A stretch of DNA of 39,970 nt from a virus: UHGV virus genome UHGV-0404708. One strand, written 5' to 3'. Positions 10,761 through 36,799 of this stretch are shown here, in pieces (position 1 is the first letter of the stretch; every line of letters begins with the position of its first letter). The notes below the pieces were generated by a model. It had not been told where the DNA came from. It saw only the letters and a list, made by a program, of their open reading frames with translations, and searched no databases. The translations under genes and the position numbers were made by a program.

Positions 10761-13235
10761 ATGAGACAGGAATGTATACAAGCGGTCCAGCAGGCGGCGC
10801 AGCGCACGTTAACGGCGCGAGAAATACAGAACATTGAAGACCGCATTTATCGAAATATGCGCTCCATTGCTCGTGATGACCCGATGTCGTGGCGACAACT
10901 TTCCGAATCAGAGCGGCTATATCGTGCAGCACAATTGGCATCTGAAGAATTACAGCGAGAAGCGGCATTAAAGAAACGTCGTGTGGCCCTCACTATAGCC
11001 GCACGTCAGAGATTGGATAAATTTATCAATAGCTATCAAGGGTCTGATGGGAAACTTGGCGCTCTTAACCGTACTATTGCTTTTAATGCAGACGGTAAAT
11101 CGAATTTCCTCTCTGTTGAGTCCAGAACAAAAGCCACTCGTGATTATGCATTGAGTCAATTGCAAGAGGCATTTGAAGCAGTTGATCCTCGCTTTTTTGG
11201 CCTGTTTGAAGATGAAGCGGGCGTACGTGACCTGGTATATGAAATGCGGGGGCAAAATACTGGCAATGCTAAAGCAAGAAAAGGTGCTAAGGCGTGGAGA
11301 GAAGTTACAGAGCTGCTGCGCCGCCGGTTTAATGATGCTGGTGGGGACATTGGCTATCTCGAAAACTGGGGGATCCCTCAACATCATTCTATGGAAAAGG
11401 TTGGTGCGGTATCAAAAGATAAATGGGTTAGCGATGTTATAGGTAAGCTGGATCGCAAATATTATACCCGAGCCGATGGACAACTGATGAACGATGACGA
11501 GTTGTCTGCATTTCTTGGAGAGGCTTATAACACGATCGCTACAGGTGGGCTGAATAAGCTTACTGATACCGGAATGCGAATTTCCGGCGCACGTGCTAAC
11601 CGTGGTAATGCATCACGACAGATACATTTCAAAGATGCAGATTCCTATCTGCAATATCAGCAACTTTATGGCGATCGCTCTCTATGGGAAATCATGGTCG
11701 GTCACCTGGAAGGTATCAGTAAAGATATTGCACTGGTGGAAACATATGGCCCAAACCCCGATCATGTTTTCCGCTCTCTTCTTGATCAGGTGAAGGCAGA
11801 AACGGCAACAGCTAACCCGAGTAAAACCGGTAAAGTCGAGCGGCTGGCGAACAACACAGAGAATCTGTACAACTTTATTTCCGGAAAGACACAGCCTGTA
11901 GCAAATCCGCACATCGCGCGATGGTCTGACAATATCCGCAACTGGCTGGTTGCCAGCAGACTCGGATCCGCGTTGCTGTCATCGTTCTCTGATCTTGGAA
12001 CCATGTATCTGTCTGCGAAGGTGACCAACCTTCCAATGAACCAGTTATTCCGCAACCAGCTTGAAGCTATGGACCCAACGAACCGTACTGAGCTTGCGCG
12101 GGCGCGCCGCGCTGGTCTGGCGATGGGATCTCTACTTGGCAGCGTTAACCGCTGGGCGATGGATAATATGGGGCCGTCAGTGTCTCGTTGGGCGGCAACG
12201 GCGGTAATGCGTGCCAGTGGGCTTACAGCATGGTCAGATGCGCACAAGCGCGCCTATGGCGTAACCATGATGGGAAGCATGGGAGAAGTAGTGTCACGGA
12301 CACCAGACCTTCGTAGCCTCGATGACTCTGATTTTCGTATCCTGAAAAGCAAAGGGATTACTGACACAGACTGGAGCGTATGGAAGCTGGCGCAACAGGA
12401 GGACTGGGGGAACGGTAATAATACGATGCTGACACCGGAAAGCATTATGCGTATCCCTGATTCAGTAGTTAAACATCTTGGTGAGCCTGAACGCGTGAAA
12501 TTTGAGGCAATGCGTAAACTGCTCGGTGCCGTAACTGAAGAAGTTGATATGGCTGTTATTACACCGGGAGCACGTGAGCAACTGATAACCGGTTCTGGTA
12601 TTCAGCGTGGAACATGGAAAGGTGAATTAACGAGAAGTGTTTTCCTGTTTAAATCGTTCCCTATCTCGGTTGTTATGCGTCACTGGTCACGCGCTATGGG
12701 TATGCCGTCTGCTGGTGGGCGTGCGGCATATATTGCGACGTTTATTGCCAGTACGACCATTCTTGGCGCTTTGTCGCAGCAACTTAACGACCTTGCGTCT
12801 GGTCGTAATCCTCGAGAGATGACAGGAGAAGATGCCGCAAAATTCTGGCTTGGTGCTCTACTGAAAGGTGGTGGTCTTGGTCTTTACGGTGACTTTTTAT
12901 TGTCAGATCACACTAGGTACGGAAGCGGCGCGCTGGCGTCGATGCTTGGCCCGGTAGCTGGTCTGGTTGATGACGTGGTGAAGATTGCTCAGGGCATACC
13001 GTTAAATGCTGTGGAAGGGAAGAGTGAGCAGACTGGTGGTGATCTGGTGAAGCTGGGGAAAGGTTTGATGCCTGGTGCGAATCTCTGGTATTTGAAGGCG
13101 GCTCTCGATCACATGATCTTTAACCAGATGCAGGAGTATTTTTCACCAGGCTATTTGCGTAAAATGGAGCAACGTTCGAAGAAAGAGTTTAACCAGACAT
13201 ACTGGTGGCGACCTCAGGATGTCACTCCGCAATAA
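10761..13235 (+). CDS. large internal virion/core protein (gp16-like position)
   Basis: 824 aa; SD GAGAGG upstream; last gene of the co-oriented virion block. Confidence 0.55.
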   Translation: MRQECIQAVQQAAQRTLTAREIQNIEDRIYRNMRSIARDDPMSWRQLSESERLYRAAQLASEELQREAALKKRRVALTIAARQRLDKFINSYQGSDGKLGALNRTIAFNADGKSNFLSVESRTKATRDYALSQLQEAFEAVDPRFFGLFEDEAGVRDLVYEMRGQNTGNAKARKGAKAWREVTELLRRRFNDAGGDIGYLENWGIPQHHSMEKVGAVSKDKWVSDVIGKLDRKYYTRADGQLMNDDELSAFLGEAYNTIATGGLNKLTDTGMRISGARANRGNASRQIHFKDADSYLQYQQLYGDRSLWEIMVGHLEGISKDIALVETYGPNPDHVFRSLLDQVKAETATANPSKTGKVERLANNTENLYNFISGKTQPVANPHIARWSDNIRNWLVASRLGSALLSSFSDLGTMYLSAKVTNLPMNQLFRNQLEAMDPTNRTELARARRAGLAMGSLLGSVNRWAMDNMGPSVSRWAATAVMRASGLTAWSDAHKRAYGVTMMGSMGEVVSRTPDLRSLDDSDFRILKSKGITDTDWSVWKLAQQEDWGNGNNTMLTPESIMRIPDSVVKHLGEPERVKFEAMRKLLGAVTEEVDMAVITPGAREQLITGSGIQRGTWKGELTRSVFLFKSFPISVVMRHWSRAMGMPSAGGRAAYIATFIASTTILGALSQQLNDLASGRNPREMTGEDAAKFWLGALLKGGGLGLYGDFLLSDHTRYGSGALASMLGPVAGLVDDVVKIAQGIPLNAVEGKSEQTGGDLVKLGKGLMPGANLWYLKAALDHMIFNQMQEYFSPGYLRKMEQRSKKEFNQTYWWRPQDVTPQ

Positions 13236-14017: not shown

Positions 14018-14650
14018 TTAATGCAGTTTATCTTTGCTTATAACCAGTAGTCTGTGGGTATGCACATCTTTATCACTGCCCCAACAGAAATCAGCCCACT
14101 GGCTATAGAAATCATCCCATGATGTCATGAAGCTAAGAGGTCTATCTTCTTCAGAGCCATCTGAAACGTATACATTATATCCTGGGGTGTTTATAGCCCA
14201 AGAAATCATTCTTTCCCAGAATCTTCTCCCATCGATTGTTTGTTGCTCATCAGATACAACGATCGCATATTGCTCTAGGAAGAACTGAAAAAAAATCTGA
14301 GGCAAACCATGAACAGCACGGTCATGAATAACATTAGGCGTACGCCATACCATGATCTGCGTACATGTTCTTTTGGCTTCGACGATATCTTCCCGAAAGA
14401 TTAACTTAACCGCATACACCGTTTCTGGAGTATCGCTGGTAGTAATCATTCTGTAATGATCGCCATTACAAGATTTTACAAGGCGATAACCATAAGGTGT
14501 TGTGAATCCCGGAAGAACGAAATCAACCACACCTTTCGCTAAGTAGCTTTCGGTGTGACTAGTGTTCTTCTCAGACATGTTCAGTTTTCTATCGAAATCT
14601 GCTTCTGGGATAATGTATGGCATCGCTTTTCTTGTTGTATTTGTTCTCAT
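14018..14650 (-). CDS. hypothetical protein (unrecognised, accessory)
   Basis: Track ORF 14018..14662; ATG 14650 preferred (SD GGAGGA 5 nt upstream); AT-rich; own operator-like site upstream. Confidence 0.7.
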   Translation of the reverse strand: MRTNTTRKAMPYIIPEADFDRKLNMSEKNTSHTESYLAKGVVDFVLPGFTTPYGYRLVKSCNGDHYRMITTSDTPETVYAVKLIFREDIVEAKRTCTQIMVWRTPNVIHDRAVHGLPQIFFQFFLEQYAIVVSDEQQTIDGRRFWERMISWAINTPGYNVYVSDGSEEDRPLSFMTSWDDFYSQWADFCWGSDKDVHTHRLLVISKDKLH

Positions 14651-14708
14651 TTCGTCCTCCATGTTTGGCTACAGGACGCGTTTTGAAGGGAAGATTAAAA
14701 ATGCTTTC

Positions 14709-14795: not shown

Positions 14796-15515
14796 TCAGA
14801 AGAACCCTGCCTTGTCGTTGATGTACTCCGCGTGCGTCTGGATATCACGCAGGCATTTGCTCACACCGACGATGTAGCAGAACATGGTGGTCAGCTCCGC
14901 CGCCGCGCCCGATACGTCGTGCCCGTCGTCCTGTAACTGGTTCAGCAGATTCATCAGCAGTGAGTTCTCAGTCAGGCCGAGAACACCAGACGGGGAATGA
15001 ATCAGGCTGCGGTAGCCGGGCTTCAGCGGGGCACTGTATTCTTTTTTGTCTTCCAGCTTGATCGCCTCCATAATGGCGGGCATGAATTTTTCAATTACCT
15101 GAGTGGCCTTTGATAAATCAGCTCCACCTGAGAGACGAACATCTCCACTGACATTTGCGGGTTTTCTGTCGAAGTAGCAATCTTCCAGTTTTTCGAAGAC
15201 CTCCCACGCTTTTTCAGTCTCAAGAATTTTCGCATGTCGTGCTGCACCGCGAGCGGTCCATAAGAAAAGATGACTTACTTTTGGTGCAATATTAAGCAAA
15301 CCTCTTTGAGAGGACTCGTTCTTAAATGCTCGTAATTCTTCGCCTGTCAGCTTGAAACAATGTTTTCCCTCAATGAATCGATCTGCATTTCGTTGATAGT
15401 TTTGACGAATCAGTTTGGGTTCTGTGTCATACAAATCAGCAAGCATTTCTGTAGTCATTACAGGGATGTTGCAATGAGTTGTTATCGGCAACTTATCAAT
15501 AGCTATATTACGCAT
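14796..15515 (-). CDS. ORF6N-domain protein with C-terminal domain paralogous to 16329..16586 (antirepressor-like)
   Basis: Track ORF 14796..15530; ATG 15515 preferred (SD GGAGG, 8-nt overlap with upstream stop); N-terminus fits the ORF6N/KilA-N-type DNA-binding pattern; C-terminal ~60 aa align with the 85-aa protein. Confidence 0.65.
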   Translation of the reverse strand: MRNIAIDKLPITTHCNIPVMTTEMLADLYDTEPKLIRQNYQRNADRFIEGKHCFKLTGEELRAFKNESSQRGLLNIAPKVSHLFLWTARGAARHAKILETEKAWEVFEKLEDCYFDRKPANVSGDVRLSGGADLSKATQVIEKFMPAIMEAIKLEDKKEYSAPLKPGYRSLIHSPSGVLGLTENSLLMNLLNQLQDDGHDVSGAAAELTTMFCYIVGVSKCLRDIQTHAEYINDKAGFF

Positions 15516-16014
15516 TTTCATTGCCTCCATCTTTCACGACGAAATAGCAATTATCTTTATAATCTAACTGGATGAACTTTATGTTTTCAGGGAGTTTTAC
15601 AGAAAGAGTTTTTGCACAAGCAAAACCAAAATCTGCGCCAGAAGCATCCATATACCTTAATAATTGTTTTAATGCTGAAGGAGAAAAAGTATCTACCTTC
15701 ACCTCAACAGGGTAACCATCTTTTGTTTTTAGGTCTGGTTGACCTGGTCCACCAAGTATTTCAGCGTTAAGGTATTTTGCTATTTCTGGATAAGCGTTGT
15801 ATTCAGAGCGTAGTTTTGCCTTGTTATCGACTGCTAGTTGCATAAGATGATCAAACAAATTGGTATCTAAATCTGCCCCTTCATCCCACATTCTATTTCT
15901 ACAGCTAATCAATTCACTGACCAGAGGTGCACTTTCTTGCCTTAGCATAAGAAGGAGTGGAGAATTAGAAATTAACCAATACAGATCGTCGTTTGAGATT
16001 TTTTGGCCTGGCAT
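15508..16014 (-). CDS. hypothetical protein, possible PD-(D/E)xK-like motif
   Basis: 168 aa; SD AGAGGT 7 nt before ATG; segment GQPDL...YPVEVK resembles a D...E-x-K nuclease motif (weak); translationally coupled to next gene. Confidence 0.6.
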   Translation of the reverse strand: MPGQKISNDDLYWLISNSPLLLMLRQESAPLVSELISCRNRMWDEGADLDTNLFDHLMQLAVDNKAKLRSEYNAYPEIAKYLNAEILGGPGQPDLKTKDGYPVEVKVDTFSPSALKQLLRYMDASGADFGFACAKTLSVKLPENIKFIQLDYKDNCYFVVKDGGNENA

Positions 16015-16328
16015 AGCGATACCTCTACTAGTAAGTTACCCACCACCGCAACGCCAATTGCTGGTGGTGAACTGGACAAGGTTGGCGTACCGGCCTAGTA
16101 GGTACCGGCGCACCTTTCGGTGCCCCTGCCCAGCCCACCATAATTCGGATATGACTGTGCTATACGCATAAAAAAACCACGTCTGGCGTGGTATGCGCCT
16201 ACTAGTAATCCGGGACGCCAATCCCGGCACTGGATTTTGCCAGTGCCCGATTACTATGGCACAAGAGGAGTGCGATGTAAATTTACCGCAAAGGTAAATA
16301 TAAGCACTCCACTTGGTAATTGCAAACC
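16015..16328 (-). ncRNA. heavily structured intergenic element (candidate ncRNA or cis-regulatory leader)
   Basis: 314 nt without convincing ORF between two minus-strand genes; at least five stem-loops, two with identical hexaloop, one GNRA-type loop, an internal hairpin plus T7 run, 8-bp direct repeat GTACCGGC x2. Confidence 0.35.
16170..16192 (-). terminator. intrinsic terminator-like hairpin inside the structured element
   Basis: Minus sense ACCACG-CCAGA-CGTGGT followed by TTTTTTT; T-tract itself flanked by complementary CGCATA/TATGCG. Confidence 0.4.
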
Positions 16329-16586
16329 TTATATGGTTTGTTTTCGTAATTGTTCGGCACAATAGTCGAGATGTGTTTGCAGATCCCGCATAGACATCTG
16401 TGAGCTGGTGACGTAGTTAATCAGTGCAGTCAGTTCGGCAAGTGGGCCATCGACATTAAATCCATCCTTATCGAGATCCCGGAGTAATTTCATCAAGTGC
16501 GATCCCTCCACCAGTGACCTGACGCCTCCCGGCGTGTGAATCCTTTCGGTAAATCCGTCTTCCAGTGGATAGTGATACCGCTGCAT
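16329..16586 (-). CDS. small protein (85 aa), paralog of the C-terminal domain of 14796..15515; LexA-controlled
   Basis: Track ORF 16329..16604 (TTG); ATG 16586 with SD GGAG 8 nt upstream; LexA box and sigma70-like promoter immediately upstream. Confidence 0.65.
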   Translation of the reverse strand: MQRYHYPLEDGFTERIHTPGGVRSLVEGSHLMKLLRDLDKDGFNVDGPLAELTALINYVTSSQMSMRDLQTHLDYCAEQLRKQTI

Positions 16587-16607
16587 CTTATCATCTCCAT
16601 GCAATAA

Positions 16608-16623
16608 CTGTATAAATATACAG
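16608..16623. promoter_or_regulatory. LexA (SOS) box
   Basis: CTGTATAAATATACAG; 20-mer AACTGTATAAATATACAGTA matches the E. coli consensus TACTGTATATATATACAGTA at 18/20. Confidence 0.8.
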
Positions 16624-16632
16624 TACCAAATA

Positions 16633-16661
16633 ATTTATTGTCTATCCAGCACGTTTTGCAA
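16633..16661 (-). promoter_or_regulatory. sigma70-like promoter upstream of the LexA box
   Basis: Minus sense -35 TTGCAA (16656-16661), 17-nt spacer, -10 ATAAAT (16633-16638); LexA box starts about 9 nt downstream of -10. Confidence 0.5.
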
Positions 16662-16662
16662 A

Positions 16663-16677
16663 TCACCTGAAAGGTAA
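16663..16677. promoter_or_regulatory. operator-like palindrome (one mismatch)
   Basis: TCACCTGAAAGGTAA; abuts the -35 of the LexA-controlled promoter. Confidence 0.4.
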
Positions 16678-16705
16678 TATCTATTCGTGTCCATGCTGTT
16701 TTTAC

Positions 16706-16715
16706 CCATATATGG
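16706..16715. promoter_or_regulatory. CCATATATGG palindrome (CCAYATRTGG family)
   Basis: Perfect 10-bp palindrome with T-rich flank, about 65 bp upstream of tail fiber ATG. Confidence 0.35.
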
Positions 16716-16781
16716 TTTTTCAGGTAATAAAATAACCCAGCATGCGGCGCAACGGGTGCTGCGACTATCTGGAGATTTAAA

Positions 16782-19304: not shown

Positions 19305-19599
19305 CCTTTTTTTACTTATCACCAATGCAGTTATTTGTACTGGCATAGCAATTCGCGTTGTCACATTCCGGCGTAACGGCTCTCAACATCGAAGATGGGG
19401 AGGGTGGCTTGCTTATTTCCTTATTGTTGCTGCGGCCAGTATTCCTGTTCGTGTCGTCTATGCAATCTGGTTACGCACGCCAATGGCTGTGGATTTATCT
19501 GAGGTCATTATCAACGCTGTCATGCTTGCTGCGGTTATTAAAACGCGCGGTAACGTCGTTCAGATTTTCAAAATAACGAGGTCTAAACATGGAGATTAA
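19291..19599 (+). CDS. holin/antiholin-like membrane protein
   Basis: 102 aa, three hydrophobic segments; between membrane protein and endolysin. Confidence 0.5.
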
Positions 19600-20218
19600 A
19601 CAATTCCAGCGAGCTGCTGGTATTAGCGAGGCGCTGGCCGCTCGCTGGTTCTCGCATATAACTTCTGCGATGAAAGAGTTTGGTATCAGCAAAGCAGAAG
19701 ATCAGGCAATGTTTATTGCTCAAGTCGGGCATGAGTCTGGGGGCTTCACCCGGTTGCAGGAAAATTTCAACTACAGCGTCAGCGGACTGGCTAACTTCGT
19801 TCGGGCTGGGCGTCTCACTCAGGGACAGGCTAATGCACTTGGTCGCCGTGCTGGTGAATCACCATTGCCACTCGAGCGCCAGAGAGCGATCGCCAATCTG
19901 GTGTACAGCAAACGCATGGGGAACAATGCCTCTGGTGATGGCTGGAATTACCGTGGCCGCGGACTTATCCAGATTACCGGTTTGAATAACTATCGTGATT
20001 GCGGAAACGGCCTGAAAGTGGACCTGCTGGAGAATCCTGAACTGCTGGCGCAGGACGAATATGCGGCTCGTAGCGCGGCGTGGTTTTTCTCCAGCAAAGG
20101 CTGCATGAAGTATTCCGGAGATATTGTACGTGTAACTCTGATTATCAATGGTGGCAGGAACGGCATCGACGACCGGCGCGCGCGTTACATCACTGCCAGT
20201 AAGGTGCTGGCGGTATGA
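19589..20218 (+). CDS. endolysin, glycoside hydrolase family 19 (chitinase-like) type
   Basis: Motifs [12 protein letters not shown] and [11 protein letters not shown] typical of GH19-type phage endolysins. Confidence 0.85.
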
Positions 20219-26485: not shown

Positions 26486-26500
26486 TTACCGTTGAGGTAA
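26486..26500. promoter_or_regulatory. operator (OL-like), TTACC-N5-GGTAA
   Basis: TTACCGTTGAGGTAA exact; overlaps predicted start region of leftward promoter. Confidence 0.6.
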
Positions 26501-26501
26501 T

Positions 26502-26528
26502 AATTATGCGTATCTGGTTTGATGTCAA
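26502..26528 (-). promoter_or_regulatory. leftward early promoter (PL-like)
   Basis: Minus sense -35 TTGACA (26523-26528), 15-17-nt spacer, -10 ATAATT/TAATTA (26502-26508); flanked by two operators. Confidence 0.55.
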
Positions 26529-26547
26529 TAGATATGAGTTAAAAAAA

Positions 26548-26562
26548 TTACCCGTCAGGTAA
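26548..26562. promoter_or_regulatory. operator (OL-like), TTACC-N5-GGTAA
   Basis: TTACCCGTCAGGTAA exact; about 20 bp upstream of the -35. Confidence 0.6.
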
Positions 26563-26619: not shown

Positions 26620-27204
26620 TTATTGTTTGCTTTTTTCGTTCTGGTTGATGACAAATTCAATGTAACTTTCGATCTTTGCTTTCTCGGTTTCGGGTAACAA
26701 TGCGTAGCGCGAGCGGTCATAGTTGATGGTCGCAGGGTCGTGCGGGTGAATCAGTAATTCATAGCCGTGACGCCCGAATGCGGATGCAACATTCTCCAGG
26801 GTGGAAATGGAAACGCTGACCTCATTGTTTAACAGGCGGCTGATTGTCACCTGGGCGACGCCGGATGCGCGGTGAAGTTTTCCCTGCGTTGAAAGGTCGC
26901 GGCTTTCGCTCATCCAGCGTTCCAGGTTGTGAGCCGCCAGCTGACCAATGTCGCTTGGGCCGACAGGCTGAAAACCTTCCTGAGAAAGCGAGCGATCGAT
27001 ATCAAGCCAGTTACGGGGTTTATTGGCGGCAGCTTCAATTTTTCGTGCAACCTGGTCGCCGATAACCTTCTTGCCAAGAGCCCAGCGGTTTACCAGATTT
27101 GCCTGAGTTCCAAGTTTTTCTGCCATCCGCGTCTGAACACCATTGAATTCACGGTCGATCAAGTCGTTGAGATTTTGCCTGCGGACGTCCTGGATACTTT
27201 TCAT
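26620..27204 (-). CDS. immunity repressor with two HTH-type segments, no autopeptidase domain
   Basis: 194 aa; HTH-like segments near aa 24-46 and 120-155; divergent from Cro-like gene across operator region; no Ala-Gly...Ser...Lys LexA-type cleavage module. Confidence 0.7.
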   Translation of the reverse strand: MKSIQDVRRQNLNDLIDREFNGVQTRMAEKLGTQANLVNRWALGKKVIGDQVARKIEAAANKPRNWLDIDRSLSQEGFQPVGPSDIGQLAAHNLERWMSESRDLSTQGKLHRASGVAQVTISRLLNNEVSVSISTLENVASAFGRHGYELLIHPHDPATINYDRSRYALLPETEKAKIESYIEFVINQNEKSKQ

Positions 27205-27259: not shown

Positions 27260-27274
27260 TTACCCAACAGGTAA
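27260..27274. promoter_or_regulatory. operator O1 (OR-like)
   Basis: TTACCCAACAGGTAA exact. Confidence 0.6.
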
Positions 27275-27276
27275 AT

Positions 27277-27291
27277 GCACCTCATGGGTAA
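27277..27291. promoter_or_regulatory. operator O2 (OR-like, one mismatch)
   Basis: GCACCTCATGGGTAA; centre 17 bp from O1. Confidence 0.5.
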
Positions 27292-27307: not shown

Positions 27308-27322
27308 TTACCTTATGGGTGA
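27308..27322. promoter_or_regulatory. operator O3 (OR-like, one mismatch)
   Basis: TTACCTTATGGGTGA; in spacer of the predicted rightward promoter (-35 TTGTTA 27305-27310, -10 TATTAT 27328-27333). Confidence 0.5.
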
Positions 27323-29583: not shown

Positions 29584-29598
29584 TTACCTATAAGGTAA
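29584..29598. promoter_or_regulatory. operator-like palindrome
   Basis: TTACCTATAAGGTAA exact. Confidence 0.5.
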
Positions 29599-29645
29599 CA
29601 AAATATTCTAAACTCTATTGATTTCGTGTCTTATGTGGTTTTTAA

Positions 29646-29660
29646 TTACCTTAGAGGTAA
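29646..29660. promoter_or_regulatory. operator-like palindrome overlapping the SD of 29664..30008
   Basis: TTACCTTAGAGGTAA exact; right half-site doubles as GAGGT Shine-Dalgarno 3 nt before ATG. Confidence 0.45.
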
Positions 29661-33544: not shown

Positions 33545-33875
33545 ATCAGCAGCAGAGCGCAAAGCCGCTCAGAGAGCCAGACAAGCTGCATCTGGTGTGC
33601 GTAAGCTGGAGATTGTGCTTGATGCTCAGGAAATTGAAATGCTGGAGCGTAACTGTGCCACGCGTCGCCCCGGGCGTGCGCCTTACGAATTTGGTGAGTA
33701 TATAGCGTTACTGATCCGCCAGGATGATGCACGCGTGCACGGGCGTATAAAATCTATCAGCAGAAAACGTTGCGGTAAGTGTGGCGAGAGAGTTCCAGTT
33801 AATTCATGTCCGTGTAATGGTGACTCACAATGCTGGGTGACTAAAGGCTGGCATGAAACGAAATTAATAGTGTGA
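33537..33875 (+). CDS. Arg-rich, Cys-cluster protein (candidate late-gene regulator)
   Basis: 112 aa; basic N-terminus, C-terminal CGKCGERVPVNSCPCNG; last gene before terminase operon; stop codon inside GTGACATGTCAC palindrome. Confidence 0.45.
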   Translation: MAKSAAERKAAQRARQAASGVRKLEIVLDAQEIEMLERNCATRRPGRAPYEFGEYIALLIRQDDARVHGRIKSISRKRCGKCGERVPVNSCPCNGDSQCWVTKGWHETKLIV

Positions 33876-33883
33876 CATGTCAC
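33872..33883. repeat. GTGACATGTCAC palindrome, copy 2
   Basis: Perfect 12-bp palindrome containing the TGA stop of 33537..33875, same register as copy 1. Confidence 0.8.
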
Positions 33884-33924
33884 GAGTAGATTATGCATGA
33901 TGAATTTGATGGGTTTTGAATACT

Positions 33925-33950
33925 GCCGCCAACTATGGCGGCTTTATTTT
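33925..33950 (+). terminator. rho-independent terminator before terminase operon
   Basis: GCCGCC-AACTAT-GGCGGC followed by TTTATTTT. Confidence 0.7.
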
Positions 33951-33961
33951 GCATGGTACTA

Positions 33962-33976
33962 TTACCACAACGGTAA
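33962..33976. promoter_or_regulatory. operator-like palindrome upstream of terminase genes
   Basis: TTACCACAACGGTAA exact; a weaker copy TTACCACGGTGGTTA follows at 33980-33994. Confidence 0.5.
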
Positions 33977-33993
33977 CTATTACCACGGTGGTT

Positions 33994-34590
33994 ATGATGC
34001 CTGCTGAACCTAAAACCTATAAACGCAAATCAACGCAATTTAAGCCACTAACAGCAATGCAGGAGGCTTATTGCCAGTCATACATCAAAACGCCTGAAAA
34101 CCAGACTCAGGCAGCGATTAACGCAGGATTTTCCCCAAATACAGCGGCAGTTAAAGCCAGTGTCATGATGCGCGATGAACGCATTCAAAAACGGATTGCC
34201 GAGTTGATGGAGGAGCGCAACAAACGAATACGCGTCAGTGCTGATTACGTTCTCATGCGGCTGGTGGAGATCGACCAGATGGACGTGATTGATATCCTCA
34301 ACGACGATGGGAGCCTTAAGCCAATCCGCGAGTGGCCGAAAATCTGGCGCACTACGCTTAGCGGCTTTGATCTGTCATCGACCATCATGAACATGAACGA
34401 GGATTCGATAGAGACAATCCTCAAAAAAATTAAATGGCCTGACAAGGTGAAGAACCTCGAACTGATTGGTAAGCACGTCGACGTCAACGCATTCAAAGAA
34501 CGCCTAGATGTTAATGTGAATGTGACAATTGCTGATCGCATAGCAGCAGCCAGGAAGCGACTCAAAGAACGTCAGGATGGTAATCAGTGA
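33994..34590 (+). CDS. terS: terminase small subunit
   Basis: Track ORF 33916..34590; ATG 33994/33997; small-terminase-like composition; stop overlaps terL start. Confidence 0.7.
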   Translation: MMPAEPKTYKRKSTQFKPLTAMQEAYCQSYIKTPENQTQAAINAGFSPNTAAVKASVMMRDERIQKRIAELMEERNKRIRVSADYVLMRLVEIDQMDVIDILNDDGSLKPIREWPKIWRTTLSGFDLSSTIMNMNEDSIETILKKIKWPDKVKNLELIGKHVDVNAFKERLDVNVNVTIADRIAAARKRLKERQDGNQ

Positions 34591-36722: not shown

Positions 36723-36799
36723 TGGCGTGGCATGCAGGATTCGAACCTGCGACCAACCGCTTAGAAGGCGGTTGCTCTGTCTAACTGAGCTAATGCCAC
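36723..36799 (-). tRNA. tRNA-Arg (anticodon UCU)
   Basis: Minus-strand read GTGGCATTAGCTCAGTTAGACAGAGCAACCGCCTTCTAAGCGGTTGGTCGCAGGTTCGAATCCTGCATGCCACGCCA folds as cloverleaf: 7-bp acceptor, GCTC/GAGC D-stem, ACCGC/GCGGT anticodon stem with loop CU-UCU-AA, GCAGG/CCUGC T-stem with TTCGAAT loop, encoded CCA. Confidence 0.9.

Follow-up and report, generated by a model that had tools for sequence, protein, structure and literature searches.

The 85-aa gene analysed here is very probably ant, the SOS-triggered antirepressor gene of a phiV10/epsilon15-type phage; LexA binding, the interaction of Ant with Rep, and induction are predicted for this phage by homology. The window (the whole stretch of viral DNA that was analysed, 39,970 bp) was 92-94% identical at the DNA level to phiV10, HEMP4, phiv142-3, vB_EcoP_ZX5, the O157 typing phages and TL-2011b, and by this identity it is a phiV10-like member of the genus Uetakevirus (epsilon15 group), a temperate podovirus. 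The position of ant is common to the window, SPC32H, epsilon15 and phiV10: past the structural operon and divergent from the tail-fibre or tail-spike gene. The start codon of the window gene was aligned with the starts of its orthologues, and the gene and its Shine-Dalgarno sequence were placed as follows.

16329..16586, minus strand: ant, small antirepressor of 85 aa (ATG 16586-16584, stop TAA 16331-16329)
16595..16598, minus strand: Shine-Dalgarno sequence GGAG, 8 nt 5' of the ATG, invariant in 7/7 aligned genomes

The Ant sequence was searched by tblastn against 50,697 phage records (E<=1e-5), and 35 records were matched, from Escherichia, Salmonella, Klebsiella and Enterobacter phages plus one further phage. 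The preliminary description had put the gene forward as an antirepressor candidate, and this held: the protein is an orthologue of SPC32H Ant (87% identical over residues 1-84), is encoded at the same gene position, and matched PDB 5D50 chain E ('Anti-repressor protein', E=3.5e-46). The orthologue is annotated 'ant: anti-repressor protein' in the SPC32H and SPC32N records (KC911856 and KC911857). The Ant of SPC32H has been characterised, and its crystal structure is available. Among the PHROG families, Ant fell in phrog_450 (E=2.6e-47), which carries no annotation; it also matched phrog_1760 'anti-repressor' (E=5.4e-07), though over the last 51 residues of that family only. No ORF6N, Bro-N or AntA domain was found in the 85-aa protein by Pfam, no DinI/Tum-type Pfam domain at E<=0.1, and no NCBIfam model. 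The sole Pfam match, DUF724, was discarded as noise (17 bits against a cut-off of 38).

The region upstream of ant was examined by direct reading and by a promoter scan, and the following elements were recorded.

16606..16625, read on the minus strand: LexA (SOS) box, 20-mer TACTGTATATTTATACAGTT, 18/20 to the consensus TACTGTATATATATACAGTA
16623-16608, minus strand: core of the LexA box, CTGT-N8-ACAG, reading CTGTATATTTATACAG, with an AT-rich centre
16615..16661, minus strand: Pant region, overlapping candidate promoters
16661-16656 with 16638-16633, minus strand: Pant candidate TTGCAA with ATAAAT, spacing 17
16661-16656 with 16637-16632, minus strand: Pant candidate TTGCAA with TAAATT, spacing 18
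16644-16639 with 16620-16615, minus strand: Pant candidate TAGACA with TATATT, spacing 18, its -10 inside the LexA box
16663..16677: Rep-type operator palindrome at Pant, TTACCTTTCAGGTGA, one mismatch, 1 nt from the -35

The E. coli LexA-box consensus TACTGTATATATATACAGTA, as quoted in PMC8072944, was scanned across all 39,970 bp of the window, and the box upstream of ant was its sole match at <=3 mismatches. None of 100 dinucleotide-preserving shuffles of the window gave a match of that quality (>=17/20). The near-consensus box claimed at 16608-16623 in the preliminary description (18/20 with flanks) was confirmed by direct reading and is unique in the window. Sites were also scored on an approximate LexA matrix, based on a set of 25 E. 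coli SOS boxes, the values of which are indicative only. On this matrix the heterology index (HI; lower values are better matches) of the box was 1.22, with 2.26 for the best training site, 13.2 for the next-best site in the window and 9.8 for the best of 20 shuffles; matrix scoring had been proposed earlier as a check, and its outcome, approximate as it is, favoured the box. Overall the site had the features of an E. coli-type LexA operator, namely CTGT-N8-ACAG, an AT-rich centre, a near-consensus sequence and a place over a promoter.

On the minus strand the order of elements was TTACCTTTCAGGTGA (16677-16663), a single T, TTGCAA (16661-16656), 17 nt, ATAAAT (16638-16633), 9 nt, and CTGTATATTTATACAG (16623-16608). 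The distance from the box core to the ATG, GGAG included, was 21 nt by direct reading and not 22 as had been stated. The promoter named earlier, TTGCAA-17-ATAAAT with 9 nt to the box, is present in the sequence; its -10, however, is weak, as ATAAAT is without the key A at position 2, and the promoter scanner did not report it but picked TAGACA-18-TATATT (10/12) as its only promoter for Pant. The LexA box covers the -10/+1 region under every candidate Pant promoter.

Sequences upstream of ant were aligned for the window, phiV10, HEMP4, SPC32H, SPC32N, epsilon15 and Klebsiella phage Kp4865-1. In this 7-sequence alignment the window LexA box matched the SPC32H box column for column. SPC32H and SPC32N differed at two positions in 242 aligned nt, one of which was ACAG->AAAG inside the LexA box, and this C->A change raised the approximate HI of the box from 3.2 to 7.8. 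A single-nucleotide change in the LexA site reportedly made Ant constitutive and gave the lytic SPC32N. A larger set was drawn from IMG/VR, comprising 79 loci with Ant at least 98% identical and 58 distinct upstream sequences. CTGT and ACAG were invariant in 79/79 of these loci, variation of the box being limited to the central N8 except for one sequence reading CTGTGT, and the small gene, box and Shine-Dalgarno sequence were tightly conserved throughout. The box was kept across phages of E. coli, Salmonella and the Enterobacter group.

These data bear on whether the LexA-like palindrome could be a chance AT-rich inverted repeat without regulatory role. The intergenic region is indeed rich in A and T, and the window has three instances of CTGT-N8-ACAG by itself; the other two, at 1164 and 36592, were nevertheless poor and were set aside as chance sites (HI >15, outside the eight best, and 14.0, respectively), and no shuffle reached a 20-mer with <=3 mismatches. 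The palindrome is also the site of one of the two SPC32H/SPC32N differences, and because it is conserved across host groups, a chance origin is effectively refuted and its probability is close to nil.

The predicted target of Ant was located in the early region.

26620..27204, minus strand: rep, 194-aa repressor, predicted Ant target (SPC32H Rep homology, HTH)

Window Rep was 43% identical to SPC32H Rep over the full length (by part, 54% for the N-terminal, DNA-binding domain and 44% for the C-terminal region) and 99-100% identical to phiV10p40 and HEMP4 Rep. It matched PDB 5D50_A (E=3.5e-42) and 5D4Z_A, both named 'Repressor', and invariant residues were present in the C-terminal region across Rep types. 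The only Pfam matches of Rep were HTH-type (HTH_3 family), and no Peptidase_S24 (self-cleavage) domain was found by Pfam; Rep therefore cannot sense RecA directly, in keeping with the earlier suggestion of a repressor unable to self-cleave. As Rep is 43% identical to its SPC32H counterpart and Ant 85-87%, the compatibility of Ant with Rep in this phage is assumed.

In PMC9638917 and PMC9986798, Kim et al. 2016 is cited for Rep binding DNA as a tetramer and for an Ant tetramer that binds two Rep dimers and breaks the Rep tetramer; there the C-terminal domain of Rep is described as serving both tetramerisation and contact with Ant. SOS/LexA-dependent production of Ant is credited to Kim & Ryu 2013 in the review PMC7380047. 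By homology, the switch in the window would work as follows. In the lysogen, host LexA bound to the box over the -10/+1 of Pant would keep ant off. DNA damage would activate RecA, LexA would cleave itself and ant would be transcribed. The Ant tetramer would then bind Rep and split the DNA-binding Rep tetramer into dimers, as predicted by homology with SPC32H, whereupon Rep would leave its operators and the lytic genes would be derepressed.

Rep-type operators were searched as TTACC-N5-GGTAA. With up to one mismatch allowed, the window held 15 copies where 0.70 were expected; 9 were perfect. The copies between rep and cro were as follows.

27260-27274: operator copy in the rep-cro intergenic region, perfect
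27277-27291: operator copy in the rep-cro intergenic region, two mismatches
27308-27322: operator copy in the rep-cro intergenic region, one mismatch

Three equivalent rep-cro copies with the same TTACC/GGTAA half-sites were found in SPC32H, and the six full-length genomes examined carried 14-18 copies each at syntenic positions. All Uetakevirus Reps examined share the TTACC-N5-GGTAA half-sites despite a Rep identity of about 43%. The operator-like site with one mismatch that had been noted abutting the -35 of Pant proved to be real, being one of the 15-copy family. It was kept in 7/7 aligned genomes, including the Klebsiella phage with its diverged flanks, and in 79/79 IMG/VR loci, of which 53 had a perfect copy and 26 the GGTGA allele of the window. 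In the RefSeq record of epsilon15 the equivalent site (19895-19911) is annotated as protein_bind 'repressor', and six further sites, scattered over the genome, are annotated likewise.

With its centre near -44 or -62, according to which -10 is taken, the operator at Pant sits upstream of the -35 and probably adds a Rep input to this promoter, so that dual control by LexA and Rep, as originally proposed, is a reasonable inference. On the simplest reading Rep would repress Pant by getting in the way of sigma region 4: a single nucleotide parts the site from the -35, and a dimer bound there should clash. Alternatively, the palindrome may not repress ant; it may activate Pant (an AND gate requiring both the presence of Rep and the loss of LexA), act on the divergent tail-fibre gene, or anchor the Rep tetramer. 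Both -44 and -62 are classic activator positions. At each of the clear early promoters two operators stand exactly 62 bp from one another, one of them over the -10/+1 (26486/26548 and 29584/29646; SPC32H and epsilon15 show the same 62 bp, Kp4865-1 62-63 bp), and, unlike these, Pant has no second copy over its -10/+1. Other scattered copies precede plus-strand structural operons, and TTGCAA is self-complementary. A rightward tail-fibre promoter sharing this TTGCAA was considered and rejected, as no plus-strand -10 was found at workable spacing. Against a role other than repression there is, besides the expected clash with sigma region 4, the fact that the operator keeps its place with respect to Pant in 7/7 genomes although the sequence toward the tail-fibre gene diverges. 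A non-repressing palindrome is quite conceivable, if on balance doubtful. Should Rep repress Pant, Ant would relieve its own repression, and the resulting positive feedback could make for a sharp switch; this consequence is inference only.

A further module was found directly behind ant.

16325..16297, minus strand: P2, promoter-like TTGCAA-17-TATATT, directly after the ant stop
16283-16297: perfect Rep-type operator overlapping P2
16060..16259, minus strand: RNA module overall (Rfam matches)
16259..16207, minus strand: a1/b1 targets of C4 (c4-a1b1), Rfam 45.1 bits, just under the gathering threshold of 46.7
16246..16170, minus strand: isrK-like RNA with terminator, Rfam 68.1 bits (gathering 50)
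16145..16060, minus strand: C4 antisense RNA, Rfam 76.7 bits (gathering 45)
16014..15508, minus strand: orf168, first ORF of the module
15530..14796, minus strand: orf244, ORF6N antirepressor (N-terminal ORF6N, Pfam E=6.5e-20)

P2 and its operator were conserved in phiV10 and HEMP4, the half-sites being kept and the central 5 nt flipped in phiV10. Three-way co-variation across the window, phiV10 and HEMP4 ties the C4 loop to its two predicted targets, one being the leader and the other the ribosome-binding site of the first ORF, with loop/target pairs of CCTACTAGG with CTAGTAG(A)GG, CCTTTTAGC with CTAAAAGG, and CCACTTAGG with CTAAGTGG. The energies of the C4-target duplexes were only about 2 sd better than those of shuffles; because of the three-way covariation, and not of duplex energy, there is good evidence that C4 would exert working antisense control like that of P1/P7 immI. 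The orf244 protein matched phrog_1760 'anti-repressor' (E=1.3e-97), and its C-terminal residues 163-239 form an Ant-like domain, 43% identical to the small Ant and matching 5D50_E (E=9.8e-14). No match was found for orf168 or orf214 in PADLOC or NCBIfam.

Phage vB_EcoP_ZX5 has the same Rep as the window. Its ORF4 'anti-repressor' carries a Bro-N domain at the N-terminus and shares 85% identity with orf244 over the C-terminal ~100 residues. Overexpression of this large Bro-N protein lowered ZX5 lysogens from 10^9 to 10^6, about 1000-fold (PMC9782041). That paper, the one experimental study of a phage with this Rep, credits antirepression in ZX5 to the large protein and leaves SOS and the small gene aside; it makes no mention of LexA, SPC32H or the small ant gene.

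The operative antirepressor might accordingly be the large orf244 product, the small LexA-controlled gene being redundant, priming the module, or acting in trans on other Uetakevirus prophages. The Ant-like domain that orf244 shares with the small Ant and the effect of the equivalent ZX5 protein in a phage with the same Rep both speak for this, and the far better conservation of Ant (85-87%) than of Rep (43%) relative to SPC32H fits a broad-spectrum or trans-acting role. SPC32H and epsilon15, however, are without the large module and have the small Ant alone. The only LexA box of the window lies at the small gene, and SOS input can therefore enter only there. Moreover, ant, box and Shine-Dalgarno sequence were conserved in 79/79 loci, whereas the downstream block followed ant in 70/78 IMG/VR loci and was missing from 8. 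We regard orf244 as the operative antirepressor as improbable, and the small Ant is retained as the SOS-triggered one. The preliminary description had called the 85-aa gene the best candidate for the induction switch; this is right for the SOS input, in view of the sole LexA box, but ant is not the sole antirepressor gene, a second module adjoining it downstream.

The tandem of ant and an immI-like module, a description of which was not found in the literature searched, suggests a two-stage antirepressor cascade in phiV10-type prophages, in which Ant would clear the operators of Pant and P2 and the P2 module would follow. We put this forward tentatively, as possible but rather unlikely. LexA cleavage would yield the small Ant, which would take Rep off the Pant operator and the perfect P2 operator. 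P2 would then fire the isrK/a1b1 leader, C4, orf168 and an ORF6N or Bro-N protein with a second Ant-like domain, and this second antirepressor would lock in or broaden the inactivation of Rep. If so, the Ant-like domain would be a movable unit for binding Rep, occurring by itself or joined to N-terminal domains that can be exchanged. No terminator was found between ant and the isrK/a1b1 leader, and SOS-driven ant transcripts may therefore also carry C4-target decoy sequence.

The ant locus was present in 531 of 5,426 complete E. coli genomes (~10%), and also in phiV10, the O157 typing phages and related phages. Every E. coli record among the matches listed labels ant 'hypothetical'. The practical value of the assignment thus lies in annotation, a known switch being hidden as a 'hypothetical protein'. 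Recognition of ant predicts prophages that would be SOS-inducible via LexA, by such agents as fluoroquinolones, mitomycin C or colicins. It may also offer a one-base handle for making derivatives that do not lysogenise, since the C->A change of SPC32N corresponds to window position 16610 (minus strand).

Several known systems were compared with the window. Coliphage 186 Tum and the Gifsy/Fels-2 antirepressors (Shearwin 1998; Lemire 2011) follow the same logic, a LexA-repressed small protein inactivating a non-cleavable repressor (PMC7380047; PMC3121763). They differ from window Ant in that no sequence relationship of 186 Tum or Gifsy GfoA to it was detectable by tblastn or Pfam. By sequence, window Ant is not a member of their family, although it is predicted to function like them. 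The C-terminal half of Tum is DinI-like.

No P22 record was matched by window Ant in the tblastn search of 50,697 phage records. Like the window, P22 is a temperate podovirus, and its immI antirepressor gene lies beside the tailspike gene. P22 Ant differs in being large and controlled by Mnt/Arc rather than LexA, and the P22 c2 repressor is RecA-cleavable. Control of P22 Ant by Mnt is mentioned in PMC7380047. The large antirepressors of the ORF6N/Bro-N/KilAC type (P1 and P22 Ant class) carry an N-terminal domain that is absent from window Ant and present in orf244.

The downstream module was set beside P1/P7 immI (c4-icd-ant) and Gifsy-1 isrK-orf45-anrP. C4 and isrK matches, an a1/b1-like leader target and a ribosome-binding-site target were found in the module. 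As in immI and Gifsy-1, an antirepressor gene lies downstream and the promoter bears a repressor-type operator (PMC4825925). Unlike either of these, the window module belongs to a podovirus and comes immediately after a gene for a LexA-controlled small Ant, and the antirepressor that it encodes has an SPC32H-Ant-like C-terminus.

The closest comparison is with the SPC32H Ant/Rep/LexA switch (Kim & Ryu 2013 J Virol; Kim et al. 2016 PNAS; PDB 5D50 and 5D4Z). The window has in common with it an orthologous Ant (87%), a Rep without self-cleavage (43%, full length), the gene position, a LexA box over the ant promoter that aligns with its own, the TTACC/GGTAA half-sites and the palindrome beside the ant -35. 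The window differs in its E. coli host and phiV10-type Rep, in a box nearer to the consensus (HI ~1.2, with 3.2 for SPC32H, both approximate), in the palindrome at Pant, which has one mismatch and is perfect in SPC32H, and in the second antirepressor module after ant, which SPC32H and epsilon15 are without. Every defining feature of the SPC32H switch that can be read from sequence was found in the window. The mechanism is not a new one, having been established in SPC32H, and this known system will hold no surprise for a specialist.

Rep-type operators (TTACC-N5-GGTAA palindromes; Rep is the 194-aa phage repressor) were found in pairs at window 26486-26562 and 29584-29660, spaced exactly 62 bp start to start. 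Each pair flanks a promoter, with one copy upstream of the -35 and the other over the -10/+1. Spacing was kept at 62 bp in SPC32H and epsilon15 and at 62-63 bp in Klebsiella phage Kp4865-1 (related genomes L002, L006 and L007 compared), and is consistent with a tetrameric Rep touching two sites.

Further copies were located at window 14709, 20958, 27645, 33962, 33980 and 37122. These scattered operators precede the integrase gene, the gene that follows cro, the gene for the small terminase subunit, the head-gene operon and orf214, which has a perfect Rep-type operator of its own upstream. Equivalent sites are annotated as repressor-binding in the epsilon15 RefSeq record. Their distribution suggests that many transcription units, late ones included, would be directly repressed by Rep. 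The minus-strand genes concerned here and below are as follows.

14018-14662, minus strand, orf214 (phrog_1349)
14796-15530, minus strand, orf244, ORF6N antirepressor whose C-terminal ~80 aa form a SPC32H-Ant-like domain
15508-16014, minus strand, orf168 (phrog_18738)

Searches of Pfam, NCBIfam and PADLOC returned zero matches for orf168 or orf214.

Between the terminase and head genes, a tRNA gene was matched on the minus strand (window 36726-36799; Rfam, 71 bits). A tRNA gene occupies the same place in phiV10, HEMP4 and SPC32H and carries the annotation tRNA-Arg there.

A block between ant, the 85-aa small antirepressor gene, and the tail-fibre gene (TATTACCTGAAAAACCATATATG, minus strand, window 16707-16729) was kept in 7/7 genomes, Klebsiella phage included, with the consensus TATTACC-N3/4-AAACC-N2-TATATG. 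It contains one TTACC half-site and may belong to the promoter of the tail-fibre gene. Near ant in Kp4865-1, the LexA box has ATGT in place of CTGT. The best LexA box of that genome (TACTGTTTAAATATACAGTA, 12738-12757; approximate heterology index 1.9, from a matrix that is indicative only) lies ~23 kb from ant rather than at it, and this phage may have a different wiring of its SOS input.

The C-terminal domain of orf244 matched PDB chain 5D50_E ('Anti-repressor protein') with E=1e-13. In ZX5, a phage with the same Rep, the C-terminal ~100 residues of the Bro-N 'anti-repressor' (L088:2874-3569), a protein tested by experiment, are 85% identical to those of orf244, whereas the N-terminal domains differ. 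This combination of a shared C-terminal domain with unlike N-termini makes the Ant domain look like a portable module joined to interchangeable N-terminal partners. For the Bro-N antirepressor that lies downstream in phiV10, the Ant-like domain was matched as two overlapping pieces (19783-19691 and 19703-19578; region 19578-19783), a pattern suggesting that a frameshift or pseudogenisation has affected the C-terminal domain of this protein. HEMP4 carries two Ant-like domains in addition to ant (1615-1848 and 33818-34051) and, at 2298-2387, an Rfam match to sRNA-Xcc1.

Adjoining the 3' end of ant is an RNA module resembling P1 immI and Gifsy-1 isrK (window 16060-16325, minus strand), composed of the following parts.

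Minus strand, candidate P2 promoter (promoter-like), with a perfect Rep-type operator overlapping it
Minus strand, a1/b1 leader
Minus strand, isrK-like RNA with terminator
Minus strand, C4 antisense RNA

Comparison of the window, phiV10 and HEMP4 revealed three-way covariation between the C4 loop and both its predicted targets. The position of orf168 is that of icd/orf45 in immI/isrK modules.
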